Shown in pieces: positions 10,191-26,006 of a DNA stretch of 32,000 nt. Origin of the DNA: Tepidanaerobacter acetatoxydans Re1 (GTDB lineage Bacteria > Bacillota > Thermosediminibacteria > Thermosediminibacterales > Tepidanaerobacteraceae); NCBI RefSeq assembly GCF_000328765.2, contig NC_019954.2:2473780-2505779 (forward strand), in the 5' to 3' direction. Made by a program: the position numbers and the translations under genes. Each line of letters opens with the position of its first letter. Within the stretch, counting starts at the first letter, position 1. The notes under the pieces are model-generated. The model saw only the letters and a program-made list of their open reading frames with translations, was not told the DNA's origin and searched no databases.

Positions 10191-12520
10191 TCAATTTATC
10201 AGTGCTTTTACTATCTCTTGCTGATTGCCTGTATCACCGATAAATTGGGTTTCATAGACAACATCGTTTTGTTTCCATATATAATTCTGGGTCTTAGTTA
10301 TGCCTTTTGATATTATATTGGGGTTTGTGATATCTAGTTCATATTTTAAGACTTTAATGTCATTAATCATTATAGAAACAACATCTATCTTCTTTTCGGC
10401 AACATTATTTTTTACTTTTGCATCTATAATAGGGTCTTTGTAATATTCCAAGCTTATATAGCCATTTTGAATCATGTCATCATATTTTGAGGTGTCGTTT
10501 GTCTGGTATAAAGATATTTCTTGTATGGAGTCTTTATCTTTTAATTGAAAAATTGTCTCCATTTTAATCATTTCAACTAGCTTATTATCGTGTAGAGTTT
10601 CGCTAAAAGGACGGATGAGCGAAGAAACTGGAACAAATCCGCCGGGCAAGTTTAGTGGAAATTTAGGGGCAAATCCCAGTATTTCTCGGGCCGCTTCTAG
10701 GTCTTTATTACTGTAAATTTCCAAAAACCTATCATAATCCCTTGATTTATATTCAATATTTTGTATGTCTTTAGGGAATTTAAGGGATGAGAGAAGTATC
10801 TTTATATCATCTCTTGGAATTTCGCTAAGGGAAAAACCTTCGAAATCGCCATTTTTACGATAATATGGTATGCTATACCATATATTTCCATCTTGCCATA
10901 TAAAGTATTTTTCAACTATTTTAGTAATAGGTCTAACTTTTATACGTCCTGTATCATGTTTTCTGTAATCTTCTAAGTCTTCTTCCTTTATATCCCAGTC
11001 TTTGCTTACTGTTAAACAAGTTCCCTGTATATTTGAAATGTTCATGGGTTCTTCACTAAACTTTATATTGGGCTTAATAGTCCTTTCATTAATAACTTTT
11101 TCATTGGCATCTGAATGCATTTCCTTCAAATATTTTATCATATCATTGTTAGAAACTAAGATGGATACACCAATTTGCTTATCAACGTCAACTTTAGTAA
11201 AATCTACACTGGCTAATCCTTTCTCTTCATAAAAAAATATTTTGTCAAATTCATAATCTGTAGGCATCTTGTCAGGCACCTTAAAGTCAAAATCAATAAA
11301 ATCCATGGCTCTATCTAAAGTGGAAAAAACTTTTTCGGCCTCATCAAAGCTAAATTGCTCTGTTTCCGTATTTTTTTCCGGCTTTAAAGTTGTGTTGGTA
11401 CCAGTTTCTGCATTTGTAAGGGTGCAGCAGCCAAGAACTATGAAAAATATCAGGGCAATAGCCGATAGTTTATATGAACCCTTTTTAAACATGTTTATCA
11501 TGATAATTCTCCTCTCAATTTGCTCTTTGCCTTCATAAAAATATGCATAGAGCATTTTATTGTGCTGTGGTCTTGATATTAAGCTAGAGAGTTTTATTAT
11601 TGTCCTGCCGTAATGGGTGAATTCATTTTCTTCTAGGTTTTCAAGTACATACATATCGCATGCGCACTCTATGTCAGCTCTCATTTTTTTCATGGCAAAC
11701 CATACAATGGGGTTAAACCAGTGCAGCATTATGGCTAGCGTTGAAAGTAGATTGCATAATAGGTCTTTTCTTTTGTAATGGCTGAGTTCATGTAGGAGTA
11801 TGTGTGAAAGTTCTTTGTCGTCAATTTTGTTTAAGATATGTTTAGGTAGGTATATTCTTGGTTTTAATATGCCGAAGATAAAGGGGCTGCAAAAGCCTTT
11901 ACCACAGAAAAGCTCAATTTGCGTGTTTATTGCCAGCTTTTTTTTGCAATTATTTAGTATATCTAAGTATTTGGATGGGTTATTTTTTCGAAGGTTTTTG
12001 TGTCTTTCTTAAATCTTATTGCTGCAGTTAATAAAAATGCAGCCATTGTTAGAAAACCGATAAGCCATGCACAGCTGCTTAAGCCAATGATGTTTTCAAA
12101 CTTATTTGTTTCATTTTTATTTAAAATTGATTTCTTTGGTTTTAGTAGGTCATCTTCTAAGAAATTGTTGTCTTGGTGTCCTTGTTTATTGATATTAGTT
12201 AGATCTGGCTTTGCTTTATTTATTGCCATGTCTATTTGCCTTTTAGTAAAGGGTTCCGTTTCTTTTGTGCTGGGTATTAGTGTCTCAAGTGATATGCTGT
12301 CTTTGCTGCCTGGCAAAAGGTTGAATATGCTTAGGTTGCTTTCAGGGGCAAAAGGCATCAATAGTCTTATTAATACAAGAAGCCATAAAATGTGATGAAA
12401 TCTAGGTGTAAGTTTATCTTTAAATATTTTCCCGATAAAAAGAATGAGTAAGGCTATTGTTGTTGATGTCAAAGACGCATATAAAACCCTCAAGAATATT
12501 TTCTTTAATACAATAATCAT
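10191..12520 (-). pseudogene. blaR1: BlaR1/MecR1-like M56 family metallopeptidase with C-terminal tandem DUF4367-like regions, one frameshift
   Basis: N-terminal membrane part (12520-11963), HELSHYKRKDLL zinc motif and MLHWFNPIVWFAMKKMRADIECACD in another frame. The two frames join if a single T is added near 11965 (HPNT-LDILNNCKKKLAINTQIELF). Confidence 0.8.
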
Positions 12521-12548: not shown

Positions 12549-12941
12549 CTATGGTTTTTTTTTAGATGCTTTTTTCTGTTCTAGAATATTTTCTAGATGT
12601 TTGATTTCCTTTTCTGTCAGTTCCTCTTGTTCTAGGAACTTTGAAAAAAGCATACCCACAGCACCATCATATACCCTGTGCAGAAAGGTTTTGTTTTCTG
12701 CTTTGATGTATTCATCACGAGATACTGCCGGATAGTAGATATAATTCCTTCCGGATTTTTTATGAGTTATAGCTTGCTTTTTAAGAAGTCTGTTTAAAAA
12801 GGTTTTTACAGTTTGGTCTGACCAGTTTATCTCTTCTGGCAGTAATGCGATGATTTCACTGGCTAATAACGGACTCTTTTCCCACAATATCTTCATGACC
12901 ACAAGCTCTGATTCGGTTATATTAGGGATATTTTTCATGTA
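12549..12941 (-). CDS. blaI: BlaI/MecI/CopY family transcriptional repressor
   Basis: MKNIPNITESELVVMKILWEKSPLLASEIIALLPEEINWSDQTVKTFLNRLLKKQAITHKKSGRNYIYYPAVSRDEY; start at 12941 after aggggtggtt RBS. Confidence 0.9.
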   Translation of the reverse strand, partial: YMKNIPNITESELVVMKILWEKSPLLASEIIALLPEEINWSDQTVKTFLNRLLKKQAITHKKSGRNYIYYPAVSRDEYIKAENKTFLHRVYDGAVGMLFSKFLEQEELTEKEIKHLENILEQKKASKKKP

Positions 12942-12960
12942 ACCACCCCTGTTGTTTTTA

Positions 12961-13006
12961 TTTACAGCTGTAAACGATGAAACTATGTATAGTTTACATG
13001 TGTAAA
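12961..13006. promoter_or_regulatory. Two BlaI-type operator boxes
   Basis: TTTACAGCTGTAAA (12961-12974) and TTTACAtgTGTAAA (12993-13006), upstream of blaI, next to TTGACA on the minus strand at 13019-13014. Confidence 0.7.
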
Positions 13007-13462
13007 TGATATTTGTCAAGTGCTATTTTGAGCCTTAAATAAAAAAAGACAAGGAATCGCTCTCTTCCGAACTATACCATTGATTTTCTTCTGCTATGGT
13101 TTAATATATCTGTTTCATCATCAGATTCAAGAATTAATGTTTGGTAAGTCCCTTTATTTTTATATCTATATTTATTAAGCATCCTTTCTTTTACAAATTT
13201 AAACATTTTATATCCATATACTATTCTTACACCTATGTAGGAAAATACAATCCCGGCTTGTATACCTATTAGCATCCCGAATACAATATAAAATAAACTT
13301 GATCTCGAAACATTCTTTTAATGTCTCTATTTGATATCCCAATGTCTCTCAATATTCCAATTTTTTTATTCTGTCAACTAATATAATGTTGTAGATATTG
13401 TATATAATATTGAAAAGATTAGCATAACCGCTAATCCTGCATGGTTTTCGTTAAAAAATACT

Positions 13463-14623: not shown

Positions 14624-14932
14624 TTATGTTGTATTGTTTTCCCTGCGAAGATTTCCAAGTATCAGTTTCATCACTTTAATGGTTTCTGAAATACCGCCGC
14701 TCTCGTTTTTCATGTAATAGTGGGCTTCCTCTCTTTTCTCATACATATTGGCCACACAGTAAAGAACAGCTTGCCTTAATACTGCCGGTGTTCCTTCAAA
14801 TTCAGATAAGGGGTACCTCAAGATATCTTCGCAAATTTCCTGGGCAGTAAGAATTAAATTAGTGATGAGTGCATCTTCTTCATCACCATCTATTCTTAAA
14901 TACAGTTTTGTTTCTTCCAAAGTTACCACCAT
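14624..14932 (-). CDS. Phage head-tail connector protein (gp6-like)
   Basis: MVVTLEETKLYLRIDGDEEDALITNLILTAQEICEDILRYPL...VLRQAVLYCVANMYEKREE. Confidence 0.85.
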   Translation of the reverse strand: MVVTLEETKLYLRIDGDEEDALITNLILTAQEICEDILRYPLSEFEGTPAVLRQAVLYCVANMYEKREEAHYYMKNESGGISETIKVMKLILGNLRRENNTT

Positions 14933-15445: not shown

Positions 15446-15784
15446 TTACTCAACAATTTTTGTGTTTGACAATTGTAAATCTATATTACGGCCGCCATAC
15501 ATTATTCTTACTATTGCAACCGTCTTTTCTTCTTCAATTACTATATAAAATACAAGATAGCTATCCACTGTAAGGACTCTCAAGCCCTTACTGTGCCATG
15601 GTTCATCTTGGTAGAGTTTATGCCGCAAGGGCAATTCATCCAGGCCTTTAATTGCATTCATAATTCTATCGATTTGCTTTTTCGCAGTTTCTGGCATTAA
15701 TAAATTCATTGCAACATACCTGTAAACATTTACAAGATCCCACTCTGATTCTTCGGTATAAATAATTTTATAACTCATGCCCAT
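15446..15784 (-). CDS. RelE/ParE family toxin
   Basis: YKIIYTEESEWDLVNVYRYVAMNLLMPETAKKQIDRIMNAIKGLDELPLRHKLYQDEPW...VDSYLVFYIV....VAIVRIMYGGRN. Confidence 0.9.
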   Translation of the reverse strand: MGMSYKIIYTEESEWDLVNVYRYVAMNLLMPETAKKQIDRIMNAIKGLDELPLRHKLYQDEPWHSKGLRVLTVDSYLVFYIVIEEEKTVAIVRIMYGGRNIDLQLSNTKIVE

Positions 15785-16079
15785 ATTCCCTATTGATGCG
15801 CTCGGCTACCTTCTCCGCAGATACAACTCTGCCTGCCCTTAAATCATTAAACCCTTTTTCAATTTCATTATTAAACTCTTCAGGTGTTAAATCCTCAACT
15901 GCAAGAGGTCTGTTATGTGTAATTTTAACTTCAAATGGTAGTCCGTTTTGCAAAATAACCTGTCTTAAAAAAATATTAATAGCATTTGACATAGGTATGC
16001 CAAGTTTATTTAACACCTTTTCTGCTTGTTCTTTTATTTCCGGCTCGACACGAGCAAAAACACTTGTGGTTTTCGACAT
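15768..16079 (-). CDS. RelB/DinJ family antitoxin
   Basis: MSKTTSVFARVEPEIKEQAEKVLNKLGIPMSNAINIFLRQVILQNGLPFEVK; overlaps toxin start by 17 bp. Confidence 0.92.
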   Translation of the reverse strand: MSKTTSVFARVEPEIKEQAEKVLNKLGIPMSNAINIFLRQVILQNGLPFEVKITHNRPLAVEDLTPEEFNNEIEKGFNDLRAGRVVSAEKVAERINREYGHEL

Positions 16080-19582: not shown

Positions 19583-19951
19583 ATGTCTGCAAATGCTGCA
19601 GAGCGTGATATTATGGATCGTAAAATAATCAGCGTTTCAAAGAAACGTCAGATTACCATACCTTTACAATTCTATAAACACCTTGGGCTCGAGAATGAAG
19701 TTGAATGTTTCCTTGAAGATGGTAGAATTGTTATTCAACCGCTTCATAGGGAACCTAGTGAATTTTCCGTTGAGATTCTAAAAGACTTAGTTTCCCAGGG
19801 TTACTCTGGTGATGAATTAGTAAAGCAGTTTGAAGTGCAAAGTAAAAATATCAAAAGAGCTGTTACCAATATGCTTGAAGAAGCAGATGCCATTGCAGCC
19901 GGTGAAAAAGAAGCGGCAAATTTTGATGACATTTTTGGCTCAGAGGACTGA
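19583..19951 (+). CDS. AbrB/MazE/SpoVT-type DNA-binding antitoxin
   Basis: IISVSKKRQITIPLQFYKHLGLENEVECFLEDGRIVIQPL (swapped-hairpin domain) plus acidic C-terminal tail; 2-bp gap to the downstream toxin ORF. Confidence 0.88.
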   Translation: MSANAAERDIMDRKIISVSKKRQITIPLQFYKHLGLENEVECFLEDGRIVIQPLHREPSEFSVEILKDLVSQGYSGDELVKQFEVQSKNIKRAVTNMLEEADAIAAGEKEAANFDDIFGSED

Positions 19952-19953
19952 TT

Positions 19954-20244
19954 ATGTACGAAATATTATTCAGTTCCCAAGCTGAGCGTTTCTTTAAAAA
20001 GATAAAGGAAAAGCCCTTAAAAGAAGCCTATAAAACGGCTCTACTAAAATTAAGTAAAAACCCTTATATCGGTCAGCCAAAACGTGGTGACCTAACCGGT
20101 ATTTATGGCTTTGATGTGAACTATAACGGTATTAATTATGAAGTTGCTTATACAATCAGCGAAGTTGACGGTAAAAAGATTGTAGTGCTTCTTGCCGGAA
20201 CCCGTGAAAACTTTTATGAACAGCTAAAAAGATATATTAAATAG
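19954..20244 (+). CDS. RelE/ParE-like toxin
   Basis: MYEILFSSQAERFFKKIKEKPLKEAYKTALLKLSKNPYIGQPKRGDLTGIYGFDVNYNGINYEVAYTI...IVVLLAGTRENFYEQLKRYI. Confidence 0.88.
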   Translation: MYEILFSSQAERFFKKIKEKPLKEAYKTALLKLSKNPYIGQPKRGDLTGIYGFDVNYNGINYEVAYTISEVDGKKIVVLLAGTRENFYEQLKRYIK

Positions 20245-20507: not shown

Positions 20508-20786
20508 TTGGCCAAAAAAACATCTAGTGTTAGCTTTAGAATCGATGCCGATATTAAAAAACAGGCGGATGAACTATTTGCAAAGCTTGGACTCAATATG
20601 ACTACAGCCTTCAATATTTTTCTACGCCAATCAATAAGAGAAGGCCGTATTCCCTTTGATATCACTCTAAATACCCCTAATGCTGTGACAGTCGCCGCTC
20701 TACTTGAAGCAGAGCAAATTGCTAATAACTCAGATGCTAAACGTTATTCTGATGTCGAGGAAGCGCTGCGGGAGTTAAAATCATGA
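20508..20786 (+). CDS. RelB/DinJ family antitoxin (toxin partner truncated)
   Basis: MAKKTSSVSFRIDADIKKQADELFAKLGLNMTTAFNIFLRQSIREGRIPFDI; strong aaggaggcgat RBS. Downstream ATG at 20783 encodes only MSRQILWTTQFKDVNN before homology appears lost. Confidence 0.9.
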   Translation: MAKKTSSVSFRIDADIKKQADELFAKLGLNMTTAFNIFLRQSIREGRIPFDITLNTPNAVTVAALLEAEQIANNSDAKRYSDVEEALRELKS

Positions 20787-20878: not shown

Positions 20879-21265
20879 TTATCTGTAACCATACACAGCA
20901 CCCTTCTTGCCCCAGCGTCCCTCTCCGGCAGTCTTGCGGTCATGGCAGGACTTGCAAAGGGATTGTATATTGTTCTCATCCCAGAACAGTTCCAGCCTAC
21001 CTTCGTGGGGGATGATATGGTCCACCACTGTTGCCGGGGTAAAGCGTCCTCTTCGTTCGCACTCCACACACAGTGGATGCTTCAACAGATGCCGCTTTCT
21101 TAATCGCTGCCAGCGGCTGTTGTTGTAGAGCTTCTTGTAAGGTCTATTGGTTCTGTTGTACTCCCTATCTGTTTTCTTTTGATGCGCCGGGCAATACCTA
21201 TCCTCGGTTAGTTCTGGACAACCGGGATAGCGGCAGGGCATCTTTGGTTTTCTGGGCATTCCCAT
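20879..21265 (-). CDS. Phage HNH endonuclease
   Basis: CRYPGCPELTEDRYCPAHQKK...YNNSRWQRLRKRHLLKHPLCVECERRGRFTPATVVDHIIPHEGRLELFWDENNIQSLCKSCHDRKTA. Confidence 0.93.
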   Translation of the reverse strand: MGMPRKPKMPCRYPGCPELTEDRYCPAHQKKTDREYNRTNRPYKKLYNNSRWQRLRKRHLLKHPLCVECERRGRFTPATVVDHIIPHEGRLELFWDENNIQSLCKSCHDRKTAGEGRWGKKGAVYGYR

Positions 21266-21490: not shown

Positions 21491-21593
21491 AGAAAAAGCC
21501 CTGAGAGCAAAAGCCCCAGAGCTAAGATTTGATCCGAATTTAATTGTATAATAAAATAGGCTGTCTAAGTTTATCTTGGAAAAATCGCATACA

Positions 21594-21671
21594 TACTACG
21601 TTAAATATCATTTAAAAATAAAAATACGAGATGGTGCGGGCACCTTCTCGCTAAAAACCATAAAGGTTTTC
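21594..21671 (+). repeat. 78-bp direct repeat, left copy (IS flank)
   Basis: atactacgttaaatatcatttaaaaataaaaatacgagatggtgcgggcaccttctcgctaaaaaccataaaggtttt, identical to 23657-23734. Confidence 0.95.
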
Positions 21672-23656
21672 CCTAGTTTTGCAGCCAATTCCAAATTAGC
21701 ATAGCCCGAAACCATTGACATTACTAATGATTTCGGGTATTTTTATTTTAAATTTTAGTCAAATAATGCTGGTGTTTTATGGCGTTACATGGTATAATTG
21801 TAAGAGATGCCTAATTGTTAAAACGGTGGGGGTTTTTAAAATATATCTTAAAAAAAGTACAAATAAAAAGACTGGAAGGACCTATTTATCAATCGTTAGT
21901 AGCTATTATGACAAGAAAACTAAACAATCTCGTACAGCTACAGTTCGCTCCATTGGATATCTGGATGAGCTTGAAAAGAAATATGACGATCCTATTGCTT
22001 TTTTCACTGAGGAAGTCCGCAAAATGAATGAAAAGCATTATGAAGAAAGGCTACCCGTTAATCTTAAAATTTCTCTAGATGAATCTATGGAATCCAATTA
22101 CGATGGCCTGAAGAATTTTGGCTATGCAGCTTTGAGTAAAATTTATCATGAACTTAAAATTGATACATTCCTTAAAAACAGGCAACGACATTCTAAAGAA
22201 AAATATGATGCCAATGCCATTATGAAACTACTGGTATTCTCGCGTTTGTTGTATCCTTGTTCTAAGAAAAAGACTTTTGAAAATAGGGATATGTTCTTCG
22301 AGAAGTTTGACTTTTCTTTGGATGATATTTATCGATGCCTTTCTTTTTTTAATAAATACAGTGATGATCTTCAGTTTTGGTTACATGAACGCATTAAAGA
22401 GCAGTATGGGCGCAATACTGATTTGGTTTATTACGATGTTACAAATTATTATTTTGAAATAGACAAGCAAGATGAGCTAAGGAAGAAGGGGGTTTCGAAA
22501 GAACACCGTCCGGATCCGATTGTGCAGATGGGATTATTTATGGATACAAATGGTATACCTATCACGTATAAGCTTTTCCCTGGGAACGCTCCCGATAAAA
22601 CTACGTTGATTCCTGCATTGGGTAAGATCCAAAGAGAATATTCTTTAGGTAGAATTATTATTGTTGCAGATAGAGGGATAACCACAGGGGATAATATTTG
22701 GTATATCCTTTCTGCTAAAAACGGATATATATTGAGCTACTCTGTTCGATCAGCCGATAGGGAATTTAAGGATTATGTCCTTGATGAGGATGGATATATC
22801 CATAAAGGCGATGGTTTTAAAATTAAATCTAGGCTTTATCCAAGAGAAATAAAGGTGACTTCGGTGAGAGGAAAGAAGTTAAAAAAGACGGTAGATGAAA
22901 AGCAGGTGATTTTTTATAGCCCTAAGTATGCAGCCAAAGCTAAACAAGAGCGTGCGCAAGCACTGATTAAGGCAATGGATTTGATTAAGAATCCTGCAAA
23001 ATACAATAAATCAACATCTTTCGGTGCTGCTAAGTATGTAAAAAACCTTACCTTCGATGCTAAAACCGGCGAGATATTGGAAAGTGTTTACCAACACTTG
23101 GCTTTTGATGAAGAAAAATTACGTGAAGAAGAAAAGTTCGACGGATATTATGCCATTGTTACTAGCGAATACAAGGAGTCTCCTGAGAAGATCATTGAGA
23201 TGTACCGCGGTCTTTGGAAGATTGAAGAATCTTTTAAGGTTACAAAAAGCGATTTTGAGAGCAGACCGGTTTATCTGTCGCTGCAAGAACATATTGATGC
23301 TCATTTTTTAACTTGCTTTATATCACTTGTAATTATCAGGATACTTGAGTACAGGTTAAAGTGGAAGTATTCTGTGACAGAAATACTTGAGAGCCTTAGT
23401 AGGGCATCCTGTTGTAATATTAAGGAGAATTATTATCTTTTTGGCTTTTACAATGATGTTCTTAAAGATATCGGTAATGAGTTGGATATTGATTTTAGCA
23501 AAAAGTATATGAAACTCGGAGATATTAAAAAAATTTTAGGTGAGGTTAAAAAAAGGTGATTTTCACTACAACTTTTTGACAAAAATAAAAAGCCCAAAAC
23601 CCTTTGTATCAAAGTGGTTAGGGGCTTTTTTGTCTCGTTTTACTGCAAAAGTCAGG
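21672..23656 (+). mobile_element. IS1634-family insertion sequence (1985 bp)
   Basis: Bounded by the 78-bp direct repeats; imperfect terminal inverted repeats ccctagttttgcagccaa (left) and cctgacttttgcagtaaa (right, complement). Confidence 0.88.
21826..23559 (+). CDS. IS1634-family transposase (probable GTG start)
   Basis: VGVFKIYLKKSTNKKTGRTYLSIVSSYYDKKTKQSR..., LVYYDVTNYYFE, IVADRGITTGDNIWYILSAKNGYI, YRGLWKIEESFKVTKSDFESRPVY (DDE with YREK-like region). Confidence 0.92.
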   Translation: MGVFKIYLKKSTNKKTGRTYLSIVSSYYDKKTKQSRTATVRSIGYLDELEKKYDDPIAFFTEEVRKMNEKHYEERLPVNLKISLDESMESNYDGLKNFGYAALSKIYHELKIDTFLKNRQRHSKEKYDANAIMKLLVFSRLLYPCSKKKTFENRDMFFEKFDFSLDDIYRCLSFFNKYSDDLQFWLHERIKEQYGRNTDLVYYDVTNYYFEIDKQDELRKKGVSKEHRPDPIVQMGLFMDTNGIPITYKLFPGNAPDKTTLIPALGKIQREYSLGRIIIVADRGITTGDNIWYILSAKNGYILSYSVRSADREFKDYVLDEDGYIHKGDGFKIKSRLYPREIKVTSVRGKKLKKTVDEKQVIFYSPKYAAKAKQERAQALIKAMDLIKNPAKYNKSTSFGAAKYVKNLTFDAKTGEILESVYQHLAFDEEKLREEEKFDGYYAIVTSEYKESPEKIIEMYRGLWKIEESFKVTKSDFESRPVYLSLQEHIDAHFLTCFISLVIIRILEYRLKWKYSVTEILESLSRASCCNIKENYYLFGFYNDVLKDIGNELDIDFSKKYMKLGDIKKILGEVKKR

Positions 23657-23734
23657 ATACTACGTTAAATATCATTTAAAAATAAAAATACGAGATGGTG
23701 CGGGCACCTTCTCGCTAAAAACCATAAAGGTTTT
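23657..23734 (+). repeat. 78-bp direct repeat, right copy (IS flank)
   Basis: Identical to 21594-21671. Confidence 0.95.
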
Positions 23735-23781
23735 TGTTCATCGTTAGTATTTACTATACACATAGGTCGTGAAAATACTAC

Positions 23782-24005
23782 TAGGGAGCCCACTCGTGAC
23801 TCCCTATTTTTGACTTTCATACTACTTTGAGCACTCGTCTCAAAATGTTTTTGTGTTCTTTATTATCCCCACACATTTATATAATATTCATATGCAAGGT
23901 TTTTGATTACATTTTTTTAATTGCTTTTTTAAATTGATACTAGGGGACTCACTCGTAGTCCCCTATAATTTGAAACGTAATACTGCTGTCCCACTCGTGA
24001 ACAGC
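23782..24005 (-). ncRNA. Array of four conserved-loop hairpins (candidate structured RNA downstream of MazF-like gene)
   Basis: Minus strand: GCUGUUC-ACGAGUG-GGACAGC (24005-23985), UAGGGGACU-ACGAGUG-AGUCCCCUA (23965-23941), AUUUUGAG-ACGAGUG-CUCAAAGU (23846-23824), UAGGGAGUC-ACGAGUG-GGCUCCCUA (23806-23782), with (AGU)AGUAU at or just after each stem. Confidence 0.7.
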
Positions 24006-24065
24006 TTCTTTGTATATTAATAATAACACTTCTATCCCTTTTTGTCTAGGGTAAATTTAAAAAAA

Positions 24066-24623
24066 CTAATCTGATTTCTTTTCTTGTGCCAAGAGCTCTT
24101 CCAAGTCTTTTACCCTTTTTTTGAGCTTGTCTATATAAACCAGCTTATCATTAAGTATATTATCCAACTTATCATAGTATCCCTTAATATCCAAGGAAAT
24201 TGCAATCGCTTCATCAACAGCTTTCATTTCTGAAGGCTCTAGTCTTGCGACATAATCTCCTAATCGAGCTTTGCTTACACAAACAATGTTTCCCAATAAC
24301 ACATTCCCATCTAGCACAACGCCCCCAGAACTATCGTGTTTAGGACTTATTGGTATAACTACGGGCAGTGTAGATGAAGTATGGGTTATCGGGGCCACTA
24401 TCGTGTTAGGCGATTCCAAATTAGCCCTATCTCGCTGCAAAACCACACAAGGTCTTTCTTTGGACTCTTCGCTGCCAATACCTATGCCTAGATAGCATTT
24501 ATAAACTTCGCCTCGCTTAACTACTCTTCTTTTTGCACTTTCGGCATTTGAGTCAAGAAATAATTTCGTTTTAAGCCACTCTAAATATTGTTGTGTTTTG
24601 GACAAACTGATACTTCTGGACAT
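24066..24623 (-). CDS. MazF/PemK-like toxin domain protein with N-terminal extension and C-terminal coiled-coil-like tail
   Basis: VVKRGEVYKCYLGIGIGSEESKERPCVVLQRDRANLESPNTIVAPITHTSSTLPVVIPI...GVVLDGNVLLGNIVCVSKARLGDYVARL; SD-like ggggaggggt before ATG. Confidence 0.88.
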   Translation of the reverse strand: MSRSISLSKTQQYLEWLKTKLFLDSNAESAKRRVVKRGEVYKCYLGIGIGSEESKERPCVVLQRDRANLESPNTIVAPITHTSSTLPVVIPISPKHDSSGGVVLDGNVLLGNIVCVSKARLGDYVARLEPSEMKAVDEAIAISLDIKGYYDKLDNILNDKLVYIDKLKKRVKDLEELLAQEKKSD

Positions 24624-24787
24624 ACCCCTCCCCCTTTAAAATCGTTTCTTCTGTTAAAATAAACTACTACCAAATAAAATTCCCACCCTAGTCCGCATTG
24701 TTAAGAGGCGTGGTGGGCTCTGTTACCTTTACAATATACTAAACAAACCCTGCTGCCAATCACCGGAAACAACTTAACAGGTTTCCA

Positions 24788-24970
24788 CTATTTACATTCT
24801 ATCACATTTTTCGCCTTGCTTTTTGGAATTTCTCTTCTTTTTTCCTTAAGTCTGTCCTTTAACCACTCAGGGTATTTATCTTCTATCGCAACCATCCTGG
24901 CATGATATTTACAATAAAGGCTGCCGGGTTTTGCTTCAAGCAGGTAGCCTTGGTAGGCACATTTTTTCAT
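24788..24970 (-). CDS. Small hypothetical phage-region protein
   Basis: 60 aa, MKKCAYQGYLLEAKPGSLYCKYHARMVAIEDKYPEWLKDRLKEKRREI; ttaggagatgaaacca RBS. Confidence 0.55.
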   Translation of the reverse strand: MKKCAYQGYLLEAKPGSLYCKYHARMVAIEDKYPEWLKDRLKEKRREIPKSKAKNVIECK

Positions 24971-25081: not shown

Positions 25082-25345
25082 TTAGTCCATTTTAGTCCAC
25101 TTTTTTAGTATTTTGTTGATTTCTTTTAATCCTTCACTGTGGATTCTAAAAATCCCACTTCTGCTATAGCCTAATTCTAGGGAGATATCCTCCCAGGACC
25201 TACCGTTAATATATCTCTTCTCCAATACCAATTGACAATTCACATCTTCCACCTGGCAAATAGTCTCCATTATTTCTTGCTTTAGCTTTATAAACCGGTC
25301 TATTTCTTGGTTGATTTCATTTTCCAAATTGATGATTTTAGCCAT
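25082..25345 (-). CDS. Phage sigma-70-like / ArpU-DUF1492-type helix-turn-helix protein
   Basis: VEDVNCQLVLEKRYINGRSWEDISLELGYSRSGIFRIHSEGLKEI. Confidence 0.8.
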   Translation of the reverse strand: MAKIINLENEINQEIDRFIKLKQEIMETICQVEDVNCQLVLEKRYINGRSWEDISLELGYSRSGIFRIHSEGLKEINKILKKWTKMD

Positions 25346-25455: not shown

Positions 25456-25686
25456 TTAAGCTACCATTTCACTGTAGTTTACGATAAATACTTCTGCTTT
25501 GTTTTTCTTTATTTCTTCCACAATGGATTCTAATTTTGAAGCTATTTTGGTATCTAGATAATACTCTCCACACTGCTTGCAGATATTTGCAGGCACATTT
25601 TTTATAATGATTATTCCTTCTCCAAAATCAACAATATGATTTACTTTTCCCTCTATCAAATTAGCTTTGCAAATAATGCAATTCAT
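25456..25686 (-). CDS. YgiT-type zinc-finger protein (MqsA N-domain-like; putative antitoxin)
   Basis: MNCIICKANLIEGKVNHIVDFGEGIIIIKNVPANICKQCGEYYLD (CxxC...CxxC). Confidence 0.88.
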   Translation of the reverse strand: MNCIICKANLIEGKVNHIVDFGEGIIIIKNVPANICKQCGEYYLDTKIASKLESIVEEIKKNKAEVFIVNYSEMVA

Positions 25687-25691
25687 GATGC

Positions 25692-26006
25692 CTACCTCCT
25701 TCTAGTTTTTAAATCATCTAACCATTCGCTTTTACTCGGGTAGTATGCCGTTATCATCCAAATATTGTCCTCTTCCAAGGCACATACCACATGAATACTT
25801 TTATTATCAACTGTATCGCCTAGTATAAGGCAGCTTGGATAAGGATAGTCATCTTCATAATACTCTATAATTTCTCCGTTTGAAAGACAATTTATAATAT
25901 CTTTAATCTTTATTCCTCTTTGCTGCATTCTAGTTAAAATATGTCCACTCCACTTTATCTTATCTTTTTTCAAAGCCTCTTTAATATCATCCATCTTAAA
26001 TGCCAT
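25692..26006 (-). CDS. DUF4258 domain protein (putative toxin partner)
   Basis: WSGHILTRMQQRGIKIKDIINCLSNGEIIEYYEDDYPYPSCLILG...IHVVCALEEDNIWMITAYYPS; 5 bp upstream of the YgiT-type gene. Confidence 0.85.
   Translation of the reverse strand: MAFKMDDIKEALKKDKIKWSGHILTRMQQRGIKIKDIINCLSNGEIIEYYEDDYPYPSCLILGDTVDNKSIHVVCALEEDNIWMITAYYPSKSEWLDDLKTRRR

Follow-up and report, generated by a model that had tools for sequence, protein, structure and literature searches.

Immediately 3' of a MazF/PemK-like endoribonuclease gene in Tepidanaerobacter acetatoxydans Re1 lie four hairpins that belong to an apparently unnamed family of structured small RNAs (sRNAs), linked to a distinct family of MazF toxins. 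They were found in a 32,000-nucleotide stretch of contig NC_019954.2 (the window hereafter, meaning that stretch at its full length), on the minus strand, as is the MazF-like gene itself (24066..24623). A first-pass annotation of this DNA had described an array of four hairpins 3' of the toxin. Its location stands, but the anatomy differs: instead of a passive series of four equal hairpins in a 3' untranslated region, they are predicted from the sequence to form two tandem small-RNA genes of ~85 nt, each with two hairpins (A and B) and a predicted promoter of its own, and with hairpin B resembling a terminator. That this conserved structured RNA is real and tightly linked to the upstream MazF/PemK-like gene is strongly supported by the comparisons described below. 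MazF and PemK are textbook type II toxins, which are neutralised by a protein (MazE or PemI). For the module described here, we lean modestly towards the view that the RNAs are an antitoxin that binds and neutralises the MazF-like nuclease, in a type III-like arrangement with a type II toxin fold.

The hairpins are defined by their shared loop. The motif CACTCGT had been noted four times on the plus strand, each time as the exact loop of an inverted repeat with an unrelated stem, and counting, shuffling and a hairpin census all confirm this. There are exactly four copies in the window (23791, 23832, 23950 and 23992), compared with a mean of 0.95 expected from shuffles, and CACTCGT is the sole 7-nt loop in the whole-window census to be present four times, each on a different stem. 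The census also recovered the stems given in the first-pass annotation, which on the plus strand read TAGGGAGCC/GACTCCCTA for hairpin 1, (AC)TTTGAG/CTCAAA(AT) for hairpin 2, (C)TAGGGGACT/AGTCCCCTA(T) for hairpin 3 and GCTGTCC/GAACAGC for hairpin 4. On the minus strand all four loops become ACGAGUG and the two C/A mismatches turn into U-G pairs, as had been claimed, and the loop-to-loop distance inside each of the two hairpin pairs is indeed 41-42 nt. The earlier proposal that the RNA folds from the minus strand, the strand of the MazF-like gene, is borne out by the fold z-score of the region (-4.76 on the minus strand vs -3.49 on the plus strand) and by G-U asymmetry in the homologues. Conserved boxes do flank each hairpin, although their forms differ from those first described: hairpin A has ACAA on its 5' side and hairpin B has UCAA there, while GUA(GUA)U lies behind three hairpins and GUAUC behind the fourth. 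Tandem Repeats Finder (TRF) detected no tandem repeat over the hairpins of the window.

The two predicted units are the only matches in the window to R1, a covariance model built from 67 distinct units. Unit 1 (23930..24016, minus strand) scores 81.5 bits (E = 4e-19) and unit 2 (23771..23856, minus strand) 66.7 bits (E = 3e-15); in sequence they are only loosely similar. Unit 1 has its predicted 5' end at ACAAAGAAG (24013), followed by hairpin A1 (23985..24005, minus strand; GCUGUUC-ACGAGUG-GGACAGC, 7 bp including one U-G), a linker (AGUAUUACGUUUCAAAUUA), hairpin B1 (23941..23965, minus strand; UAGGGGACU-ACGAGUG-AGUCCCCUA, 9 bp) and a tail. Unit 2, whose predicted start at ACAA is at ~23854, runs from ACAAAAAC through hairpin A2 (23824..23846, minus strand; AUUUUGAG-ACGAGUG-CUCAAAGU, 8 bp with G-U pairs), a linker (AGUAUGAAAGUCAAAAA) and hairpin B2 (23782..23806, minus strand; UAGGGAGUC-ACGAGUG-GGCUCCCUA, 9 bp) to GUAGUAUUUU. 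The predicted promoter of unit 1 (24020..24048, minus strand; TAGACA-17-TG-n-TATTAT) has 10 of 12 consensus matches plus the TG extension and begins 18 nt past the MazF-like stop codon. Unit 2 has a weaker candidate (23862..23890, minus strand; TGAATA-17-GATAAT, 8 of 12 matches), in the same position as TACATA-18-TAAAAT in second units at other loci.

A scan of the window for intrinsic terminators flagged hairpin B2 as terminator-like and did not flag hairpin A or B1. It detected no terminator between the MazF-like stop codon and unit 1, so toxin transcripts probably run into that unit. Downstream of unit 2 lies a canonical intrinsic terminator (GCGAGAAGGUGCCCGCACCAUCUCGUAUUUUUAUUUUU; 23678..23715, minus strand), which sits inside a 78-bp repeat produced by the insertion of an insertion sequence (IS), has a second copy at 21614-21651 and probably ends read-through transcripts. 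A 51-amino-acid open reading frame (ORF) on the minus strand at 23665-23820, extending from the linker of unit 2 through B2 into the 78-bp repeat, was treated as spurious because it has no obvious Shine-Dalgarno sequence, is not conserved elsewhere and crosses stems that change in a compensatory manner.

In its general layout a unit begins with a sigma-70-type promoter (TAGACA or TTGACA, 17 nt, then often TG-n-TAnnAT), six bases, ACAA(G/A)AAA and a hairpin A of 7-8 bp, and continues with the linker (A)GUAUAGUAUU-UCAAAC, a GGG/CCC-rich hairpin B of 8-10 bp and a U-rich tail. ACAA is found 5' of hairpin A in 115 of 116 distinct units, and a promoter-like site with at least 8 of 12 matches lies ahead of 103 of them. 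Among these promoter-bearing units exactly 6 nt separate the end of the -10 box from the A of ACAA in 98, and a TG extension is present in 68, while 95 of the 116 have a T-run behind hairpin B. Based on this promoter and terminator geometry, the units are predicted to be ~85-nt primary transcripts that start at ACAA, in which hairpin B would usually double as the intrinsic terminator.

The suggestion of a conserved loop with covarying stems proved correct in two sets drawn from different collections, one of genome units (A2, 67 sequences) and one of metagenome units (A5, 65 distinct sequences). Hairpin A is paired in 99.1% (A2) and 97.3% (A5) of cases, with both-sided changes in 7/7 pairs in each set, and hairpin B in 93.7% and 92.8%, with both-sided changes in 9/9 pairs in each; all 16 core stem pairs thus show compensatory changes. 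The covariation score was 0.661 for A2 against 0.246 when shuffled (0/500 shuffles reach the observed value) and 0.703 against 0.256 for A5, and sliding the partners by 1-3 columns brought it down to at most 0.18 (A2) and 0.19 (A5). The loop reads A-C-G-N-G-Y-G, and its A, C, G, G and G positions are invariant in both hairpins of all 67 A2 units. G-U pairs are common, with U-G at one pair in 31 of 67 sequences, and on the opposite strand these would be C-A mismatches. Together with the promoter and terminator signals, they point to RNA in the toxin-gene sense as the functional molecule. A possible outer helix, UAC/GUA, is only ~70% paired and barely covaries; it is uncertain whether it exists, and it would explain the 'AGUAU box' of the first-pass annotation.

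Linkage to the toxin was examined in 80 loci taken from species-representative genomes (580 kb, both strands searched). The toxin family itself, of ~185-230 amino acids, is well conserved and gave 823 matches. The commonest 7-nt hairpin loops in these loci were ACGAGTG (78), ACGAGCG (55), ACGTGTG (26) and ACGGGTG (15). In the main clade (~55 loci), the hairpins begin ~40-70 nt past the toxin stop codon and span a few hundred nt on the gene strand, in hosts that include Clostridia, Lachnospiraceae, Desulfosporosinus/Desulfitobacterium, Heyndrickxia, Epulopiscium and one Negativicutes metagenome-assembled genome. The covariance-model search advised in the first-pass annotation returned 107 R1 matches, 106 of them on the gene strand at toxin loci and, except for one ~1.6 kb downstream (L068), immediately 3' of the toxin gene. 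The homologous arrays that it had anticipated near MazF-like genes therefore exist, on the gene strand, in dozens of Bacillota genomes. None of the protein genes downstream is conserved across the loci. In many of the Lachnospiraceae loci, genes for an integrase, an excisionase and an XRE protein lie upstream, with tuf on the downstream side.

As an independent test of linkage, metagenome contigs were scanned with the RNA pattern alone, blind to protein. This gave 73 hairpin-forming matches, and in 58 of the 65 that could be evaluated a MazF-like gene lies directly upstream on the same strand; the remainder comprised 8 matches with too little flank and 7 orphan units. The orphans (L132, L153, L165, L182, L185, L210 and L215) have no MazF-like gene upstream. 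Four of these (L165, L182, L185 and L215) keep the promoter, L210 is without a clear one, and in L132 and L153 unrelated DNA abuts the unit precisely at the 5' TACAA. These seven units may represent either orphan antitoxins or remnants of deletions. In viral contigs the same pattern matched 20 times, and only 2 of these matches were true units.

The protein encoded upstream of the RNAs is a MazF/PemK-like endoribonuclease of 185 amino acids, which matches PF02452 at full length (model positions 1-109 of 109, E = 3.4e-22) and has PemK_toxin as its sole Pfam match. By sequence, the nearest solved structures are those of B. subtilis EndoA/MazF (4MDX and 1NE8, E ~3e-13), with S. aureus MazF also matched, and the toxin is 34-38% identical to the MazF proteins of B. 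subtilis, B. anthracis, B. cereus and S. aureus over ~115 residues. An AlphaFold2 (AF2) model with a pLDDT of 90.7 consists of an N-terminal helix (residues 7-25), the MazF core and a long C-terminal helix (146-184). Foldseek gave this model a target-normalised TM-score (TMt) of ~0.8-0.88 against MazF structures, and the PDB sequence matches and 50 Foldseek matches listed are all MazF-type proteins. R57 is invariant and T80 at least 90% conserved among homologues; they align with the GGVRP Arg and the AAIT Thr of EndoA, which we take to be R25 and T48, the MazF catalytic residues. The N- and C-terminal helices hold invariant residues without a counterpart in canonical MazF, namely W16, D159, K160 and Y163, with Q11, L14 and K18 also invariant in a set of 20 sequences. 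In the structural model, they are candidate RNA-contact surfaces. Genome annotation currently labels these genes 'type II toxin', and for the toxin we found no PADLOC match and no NCBIfam or defence-system name.

The claim that no protein antitoxin accompanies the MazF-like gene also held: no neighbouring ORF is conserved across loci, many loci are without an ORF of at least 50 amino acids within 400 nt upstream, and no adjacent MazE/PemI-type gene is found at the toxin locus. The only recurrent upstream neighbour is an XRE-type helix-turn-helix (HTH) gene, present at ~14 of 79 loci, in Lachnospiraceae, ~45-50 nt upstream (8 nt in L030). In the window, a 60-amino-acid ORF (24788-24970) is without a Pfam match and was seen elsewhere only in a near-identical Tepidanaerobacter contig (L007), and a candidate promoter of the MazF-like gene (24731..24759, minus strand; TTGGCA-17-TATTGT, 9 of 12 matches) is weak and not conserved across loci. 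Two plasmid-borne relatives at 33-37% identity, from Geobacillus (L233) and Brevibacillus (L234), keep the N-terminal extension and have no long C-terminal helix. Downstream of both there is a plain terminator alone and no sRNA unit, with an HTH gene next in Geobacillus. These two cases weakly suggest that the RNA partner may accompany the extended family with the C-terminal helix.

In more remote toxin homologues (at most 52% identity) the architecture is retained, with a consensus promoter, UACAAAUA or UACAAAGUA on the 5' side, GUA behind every hairpin, and a terminator. Their loops fall into several classes: GGA loops (AUGGAUU, AAGGAUA, AGGAA) in L063, L064, L067, L069 and L073, (A/U)UGA(C/U) loops (AUGAC, AUGAU, UUGAU) in L090, U-rich tetraloops plus GUAACA in L071-L088, and CGAWGW in L231, an 8.1-kb B. 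velezensis plasmid. On this plasmid and on a 46-kb F. nucleatum plasmid the toxin is followed by two-hairpin units, for which R1 detection is weak; L231 and L232 are counted among the other-clade loci that share the downstream sRNA architecture. Protein clustering agrees with the loop classes, and such clade-specific loops lend further support to binding or neutralisation of the toxin by the RNA. All toxin clades have the 5' ACAA box in common. Given this, and given that B. subtilis MazF/EndoA is reported to be UACAU-specific (in the title of Park et al. 2011, as it stands in the reference list of PMC8860590), the box may be a recognition or processing site.

Some of these loops resemble sequences known from elsewhere. 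GGA loops look like CsrA-binding sites, and the main-clade loop ACGNGYG is one base off the apex of the 23S rRNA sarcin-ricin loop, ACGAGAG (AGUACGAGAGGACC; PMC3496166), which unit 2 of L028 and unit 2 of L038 carry exactly. The sarcin-ricin-like loop may be a coincidence or may reflect target mimicry.

The first-pass annotation had recognised no named RNA family here, and no Rfam 15 family matches the element: over the element in the window and in 26 homologous loci, no relevant match reached the gathering score. An RNA motif named after pemK genes (RF02913) is listed in Rfam and handled as cis-regulatory (PMC7657543; bioRxiv 10.1101/2021.11.03.467129). Like our element, it is an RNA motif defined by bioinformatics; it was absent from all Rfam 15 scans, including that of the element itself at E values up to 10. 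In the literature searched, no MazF/PemK toxin with an RNA antitoxin is described, although such an absence is no proof of novelty. To our knowledge, the toxins with type III RNA antitoxins come from just three families, none of them similar to MazF in sequence.

The closest parallel is with type III toxin-antitoxin (TA) systems (ToxIN, CptIN, TenpIN; AbiQ/antiQ), whose toxins are reported to share a Kid/MazF-like fold. In both cases an endoribonuclease toxin is found with a cis-encoded structured RNA that carries a repeated recognition element, there is no protein antitoxin (here, none that is conserved), locations include plasmids, prophages and islands, and the RNA is seemingly matched to the toxin clade. 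Type III RNA is also in excess over its toxin, and here separate sRNA promoters are proposed to have the same effect. The type III class is defined by a direct-repeat antitoxin that lies behind a promoter and 5' of the toxin gene, a terminator between them, which sets the ratio of RNA to toxin, and ToxN, CptN or TenpN toxins (PMC8860590). Type III toxins bind their RNA, and usually process it, in an inactive RNA-protein complex. Three of these structural features are lacking at our loci. The toxin is a true PF02452 MazF/PemK protein and not ToxN/AbiQ, CptN or TenpN; the RNA follows the toxin gene on its 3' side and has a predicted promoter to itself, in reversed order and without the 5' terminator arrangement; and the pseudoknotted, near-identical 34-36-nt direct repeats are replaced by conserved-loop, variable-stem hairpins in which TRF finds no repeats.

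Type II systems such as MazEF/PemIK (EndoA-EndoAI in B. subtilis) share the toxin fold and the conserved residues aligned to the catalytic Arg and Thr. They differ from the module described here in that a conserved sRNA takes the place of the second gene, MazE/PemI, and in that our toxin has the extra N- and C-terminal helices with invariant W16, K160 and Y163. A third parallel is provided by CsrB/RsmZ, in which several free-stem hairpins likewise show one short loop motif suited to titrating a dimeric RNA-binding protein, and one toxin clade here even has GGA loops. Unlike those global regulators, which are encoded apart, our RNAs are linked to a nuclease-toxin gene and have two hairpins each.

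The antitoxin interpretation, the simplest to account for all of the observations, draws on an apparently active toxin without a protein partner, an obligate, co-oriented and separately transcribed sRNA, two identical loops per RNA, loops that track the toxin clade, orphan copies, and location on plasmids and islands. Under this interpretation, the toxin would be bound directly by the RNA: the pair of identical loops on a single RNA would face the symmetric toxin dimer, and the toxin-specific N- and C-terminal helices are candidate contacts. Binding would hold the nuclease inactive, as in type III systems, and the separate strong promoter of the RNA would keep it in excess over the toxin. Were transcription lost, by loss of the element or takeover by a phage, the RNA would decay and the toxin be freed. 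The model of the first-pass annotation, in which an RNA binds or titrates the toxin, fits all of the computational evidence; binding, neutralisation, processing at ACAA/UCAA, and a role in addiction or phage defence are what we infer from it.

Several points weigh against the antitoxin interpretation. Binding, rescue and toxicity are predictions from computation. The 7 orphan units show that the RNA can occur without the toxin gene, which fits orphan antitoxins and also an independent function. The XRE-HTH gene could be a protein antitoxin in its Lachnospiraceae subgroup, and the toxin might be regulated by its own N- and C-terminal helices, with no RNA involved. Whatever the function of the RNA, hairpin B would be required for termination, the outer UAC/GUA pairing is weak, and the loop differences rest on few loci outside the main clade, so that common descent is possible instead of co-adaptation.

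A more specific form of the antitoxin interpretation would make these RNAs the first antitoxins of RNA type in the MazF/PemK superfamily, acting by target mimicry, with each hairpin showing its toxin clade an uncleavable version of the structured element recognised in a cellular RNA. We regard this as improbable. If it were true, the toxin would be a MazF specific for structure, for example an rRNA or tRNA loop, and loops and specificity would co-diversify.

The strict linkage of gene and RNA and the clade-specific loops would suit any obligate RNA-protein partnership. The MazF-like protein might be mainly a processing or partner enzyme, like Cas6 for CRISPR hairpins, with the RNA as cofactor or effector of a particle whose role lies elsewhere, for example in the detection or targeting of invading nucleic acid. 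The conserved single-stranded ACAA/UCAA boxes 5' of each hairpin are in keeping with this, as is the UACAU specificity that the reference list cited above reports for EndoA. ACA is the core of MazF recognition. However, the stems are free to vary, no variable guide-like segment is found beyond them, the conserved single-stranded parts are short and identical in all loci of a clade, and an active MazF core without a neutraliser would be expected to be toxic. We consider a processing or partner role unlikely.

Another rival to the antitoxin reading is that the RNAs control the synthesis of the toxin and not its activity, either by a type I-like sRNA that base-pairs in trans or by a 3' untranslated region element of the toxin's own mRNA to which the toxin binds. 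Firmicute type I systems also have small RNAs encoded beside the toxin gene, and the probable reading of the toxin mRNA into unit 1 would provide the 3' element. Since the RNA is co-oriented with the gene, though, the two do not overlap in antisense; duplexes of the units with the toxin 5' region are no better in energy than those of shuffles (mean z = -0.16, a weak test), CACUCGU, the complement of the loop, is absent from the toxin mRNA, and invariant loops on variable stems suggest recognition by a protein. Control of synthesis is in our judgement rather doubtful. Ordinary transcription termination, or mRNA stabilisation at the 3' end of the MazF-like gene, without any dedicated partner, would account for the GC-rich hairpin B with its frequent T-run and for the flagging of B2, but not for a 7-nt loop that stays invariant across Bacillota families while the stems change, which is no property of terminators; hairpin A has no T-run, each unit has a promoter at a fixed distance, and the motif is not found elsewhere in the window or in the flanks of the loci, making this explanation very improbable and, on the comparative evidence, largely refuted. 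Least credible of all is a function at the DNA level, for example as single-strand hairpins that serve replication, transfer, recombination or IS targeting. While the ATACTAC boxes of the element resemble the nick-site motif of pMV158-type rolling-circle plasmids, the 78-bp duplication of a nearby IS1634 insertion starts with ATACTAC and the module is found on mobile elements, the G-U pairs are strongly strand-asymmetric, promoter and terminator signals stand at fixed positions, the model matches lie on the gene strand (106/107) and most loci are without a Rep, relaxase or recombinase gene.

If the antitoxin reading is true, the module would join the type II toxin class with the RNA-antitoxin class. 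It would constitute a new and easily searchable class of RNA antitoxin and would explain many annotations of 'solitary' MazF, in a toxin family that is spread over Clostridia, gut Lachnospiraceae, Desulfitobacteriaceae, Bacillaceae, Negativicutes, and Bacillus and Fusobacterium plasmids. It would also supply a small natural pairing of an RNA loop with a nuclease, in which recognition is clade-specific, for use in the study or engineering of RNA-protein specificity.

With regard to genomic context, the module is located on plasmids, on integrative elements and on islands beside tRNA or tmRNA genes. In the U-rich-loop clade it lies directly downstream of tRNA genes (L075-L077, L081, L086 and L087), L068 is near tmRNA, L021 occurs with 6S RNA, and L083 and L087 have group II introns downstream. 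The tRNA/tmRNA adjacency suggests islands integrated at those genes; the window itself contains no tRNA or tmRNA. We rejected the idea of a typical phage element, as blastn of the region against phage genomes gave no match; tblastn of the toxin against phage gave two weak matches only, at 35% identity. With so few phage matches, and with 2 true units among the 20 matches in viral contigs, the sRNA element is not typically a phage feature.

The insertion sequence beside the hairpins belongs to the IS1634 family (21671..23656, plus strand; NF033559, 407 bits; transposase 21715-23559) and is flanked by perfect 78-bp direct repeats (21593-21670 and 23657-23734), each of which holds a copy of the intrinsic terminator (21614-21651 and 23678-23715). 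IS1634 is known for target duplications of unusual length. The IS is not part of the module and splits what was originally the intergenic region between MazF-sRNA and an HNH endonuclease gene (20879-21265), the next minus-strand gene beyond the hairpins. Ten contigs with an identical toxin (L001-L010) are IS-free where they reach that far, and in these alleles the toxin gene is followed by the same four hairpins, the canonical terminator and then HNH. The HNH gene and its DUF1492 counterpart on the other side of the module are neighbours in Tepidanaerobacter only and are not shared by the toxin-sRNA loci of other genera. A link to the downstream HNH gene or to a cos site was rejected because no downstream gene is conserved.

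The wider neighbourhood in the window is an island rich in toxin-antitoxin genes and phage remnants. It includes a ParE and RelB pair (15446-16079), a ParE-like toxin with an upstream gene for a 122-amino-acid AbrB/MazE-like protein (19583-20244), a lone RelB (20508-20786) and a DUF4258 toxin-like gene with an MqsA-like zinc-ribbon partner (25456-26006). Phage-type genes are scattered through it, namely a head-tail connector (14624-14932), the HNH endonuclease and the DUF1492 protein (25082-25345), which resembles sigma-70 region 4, and they suggest a decayed prophage or satellite. Further away, the gene of a BlaI-type repressor (12549-13019) precedes that of a BlaR1 M56 peptidase, which is split into two ORFs (11963-12520 and 10191-11729), so that the sensor gene is probably disrupted or frameshifted.

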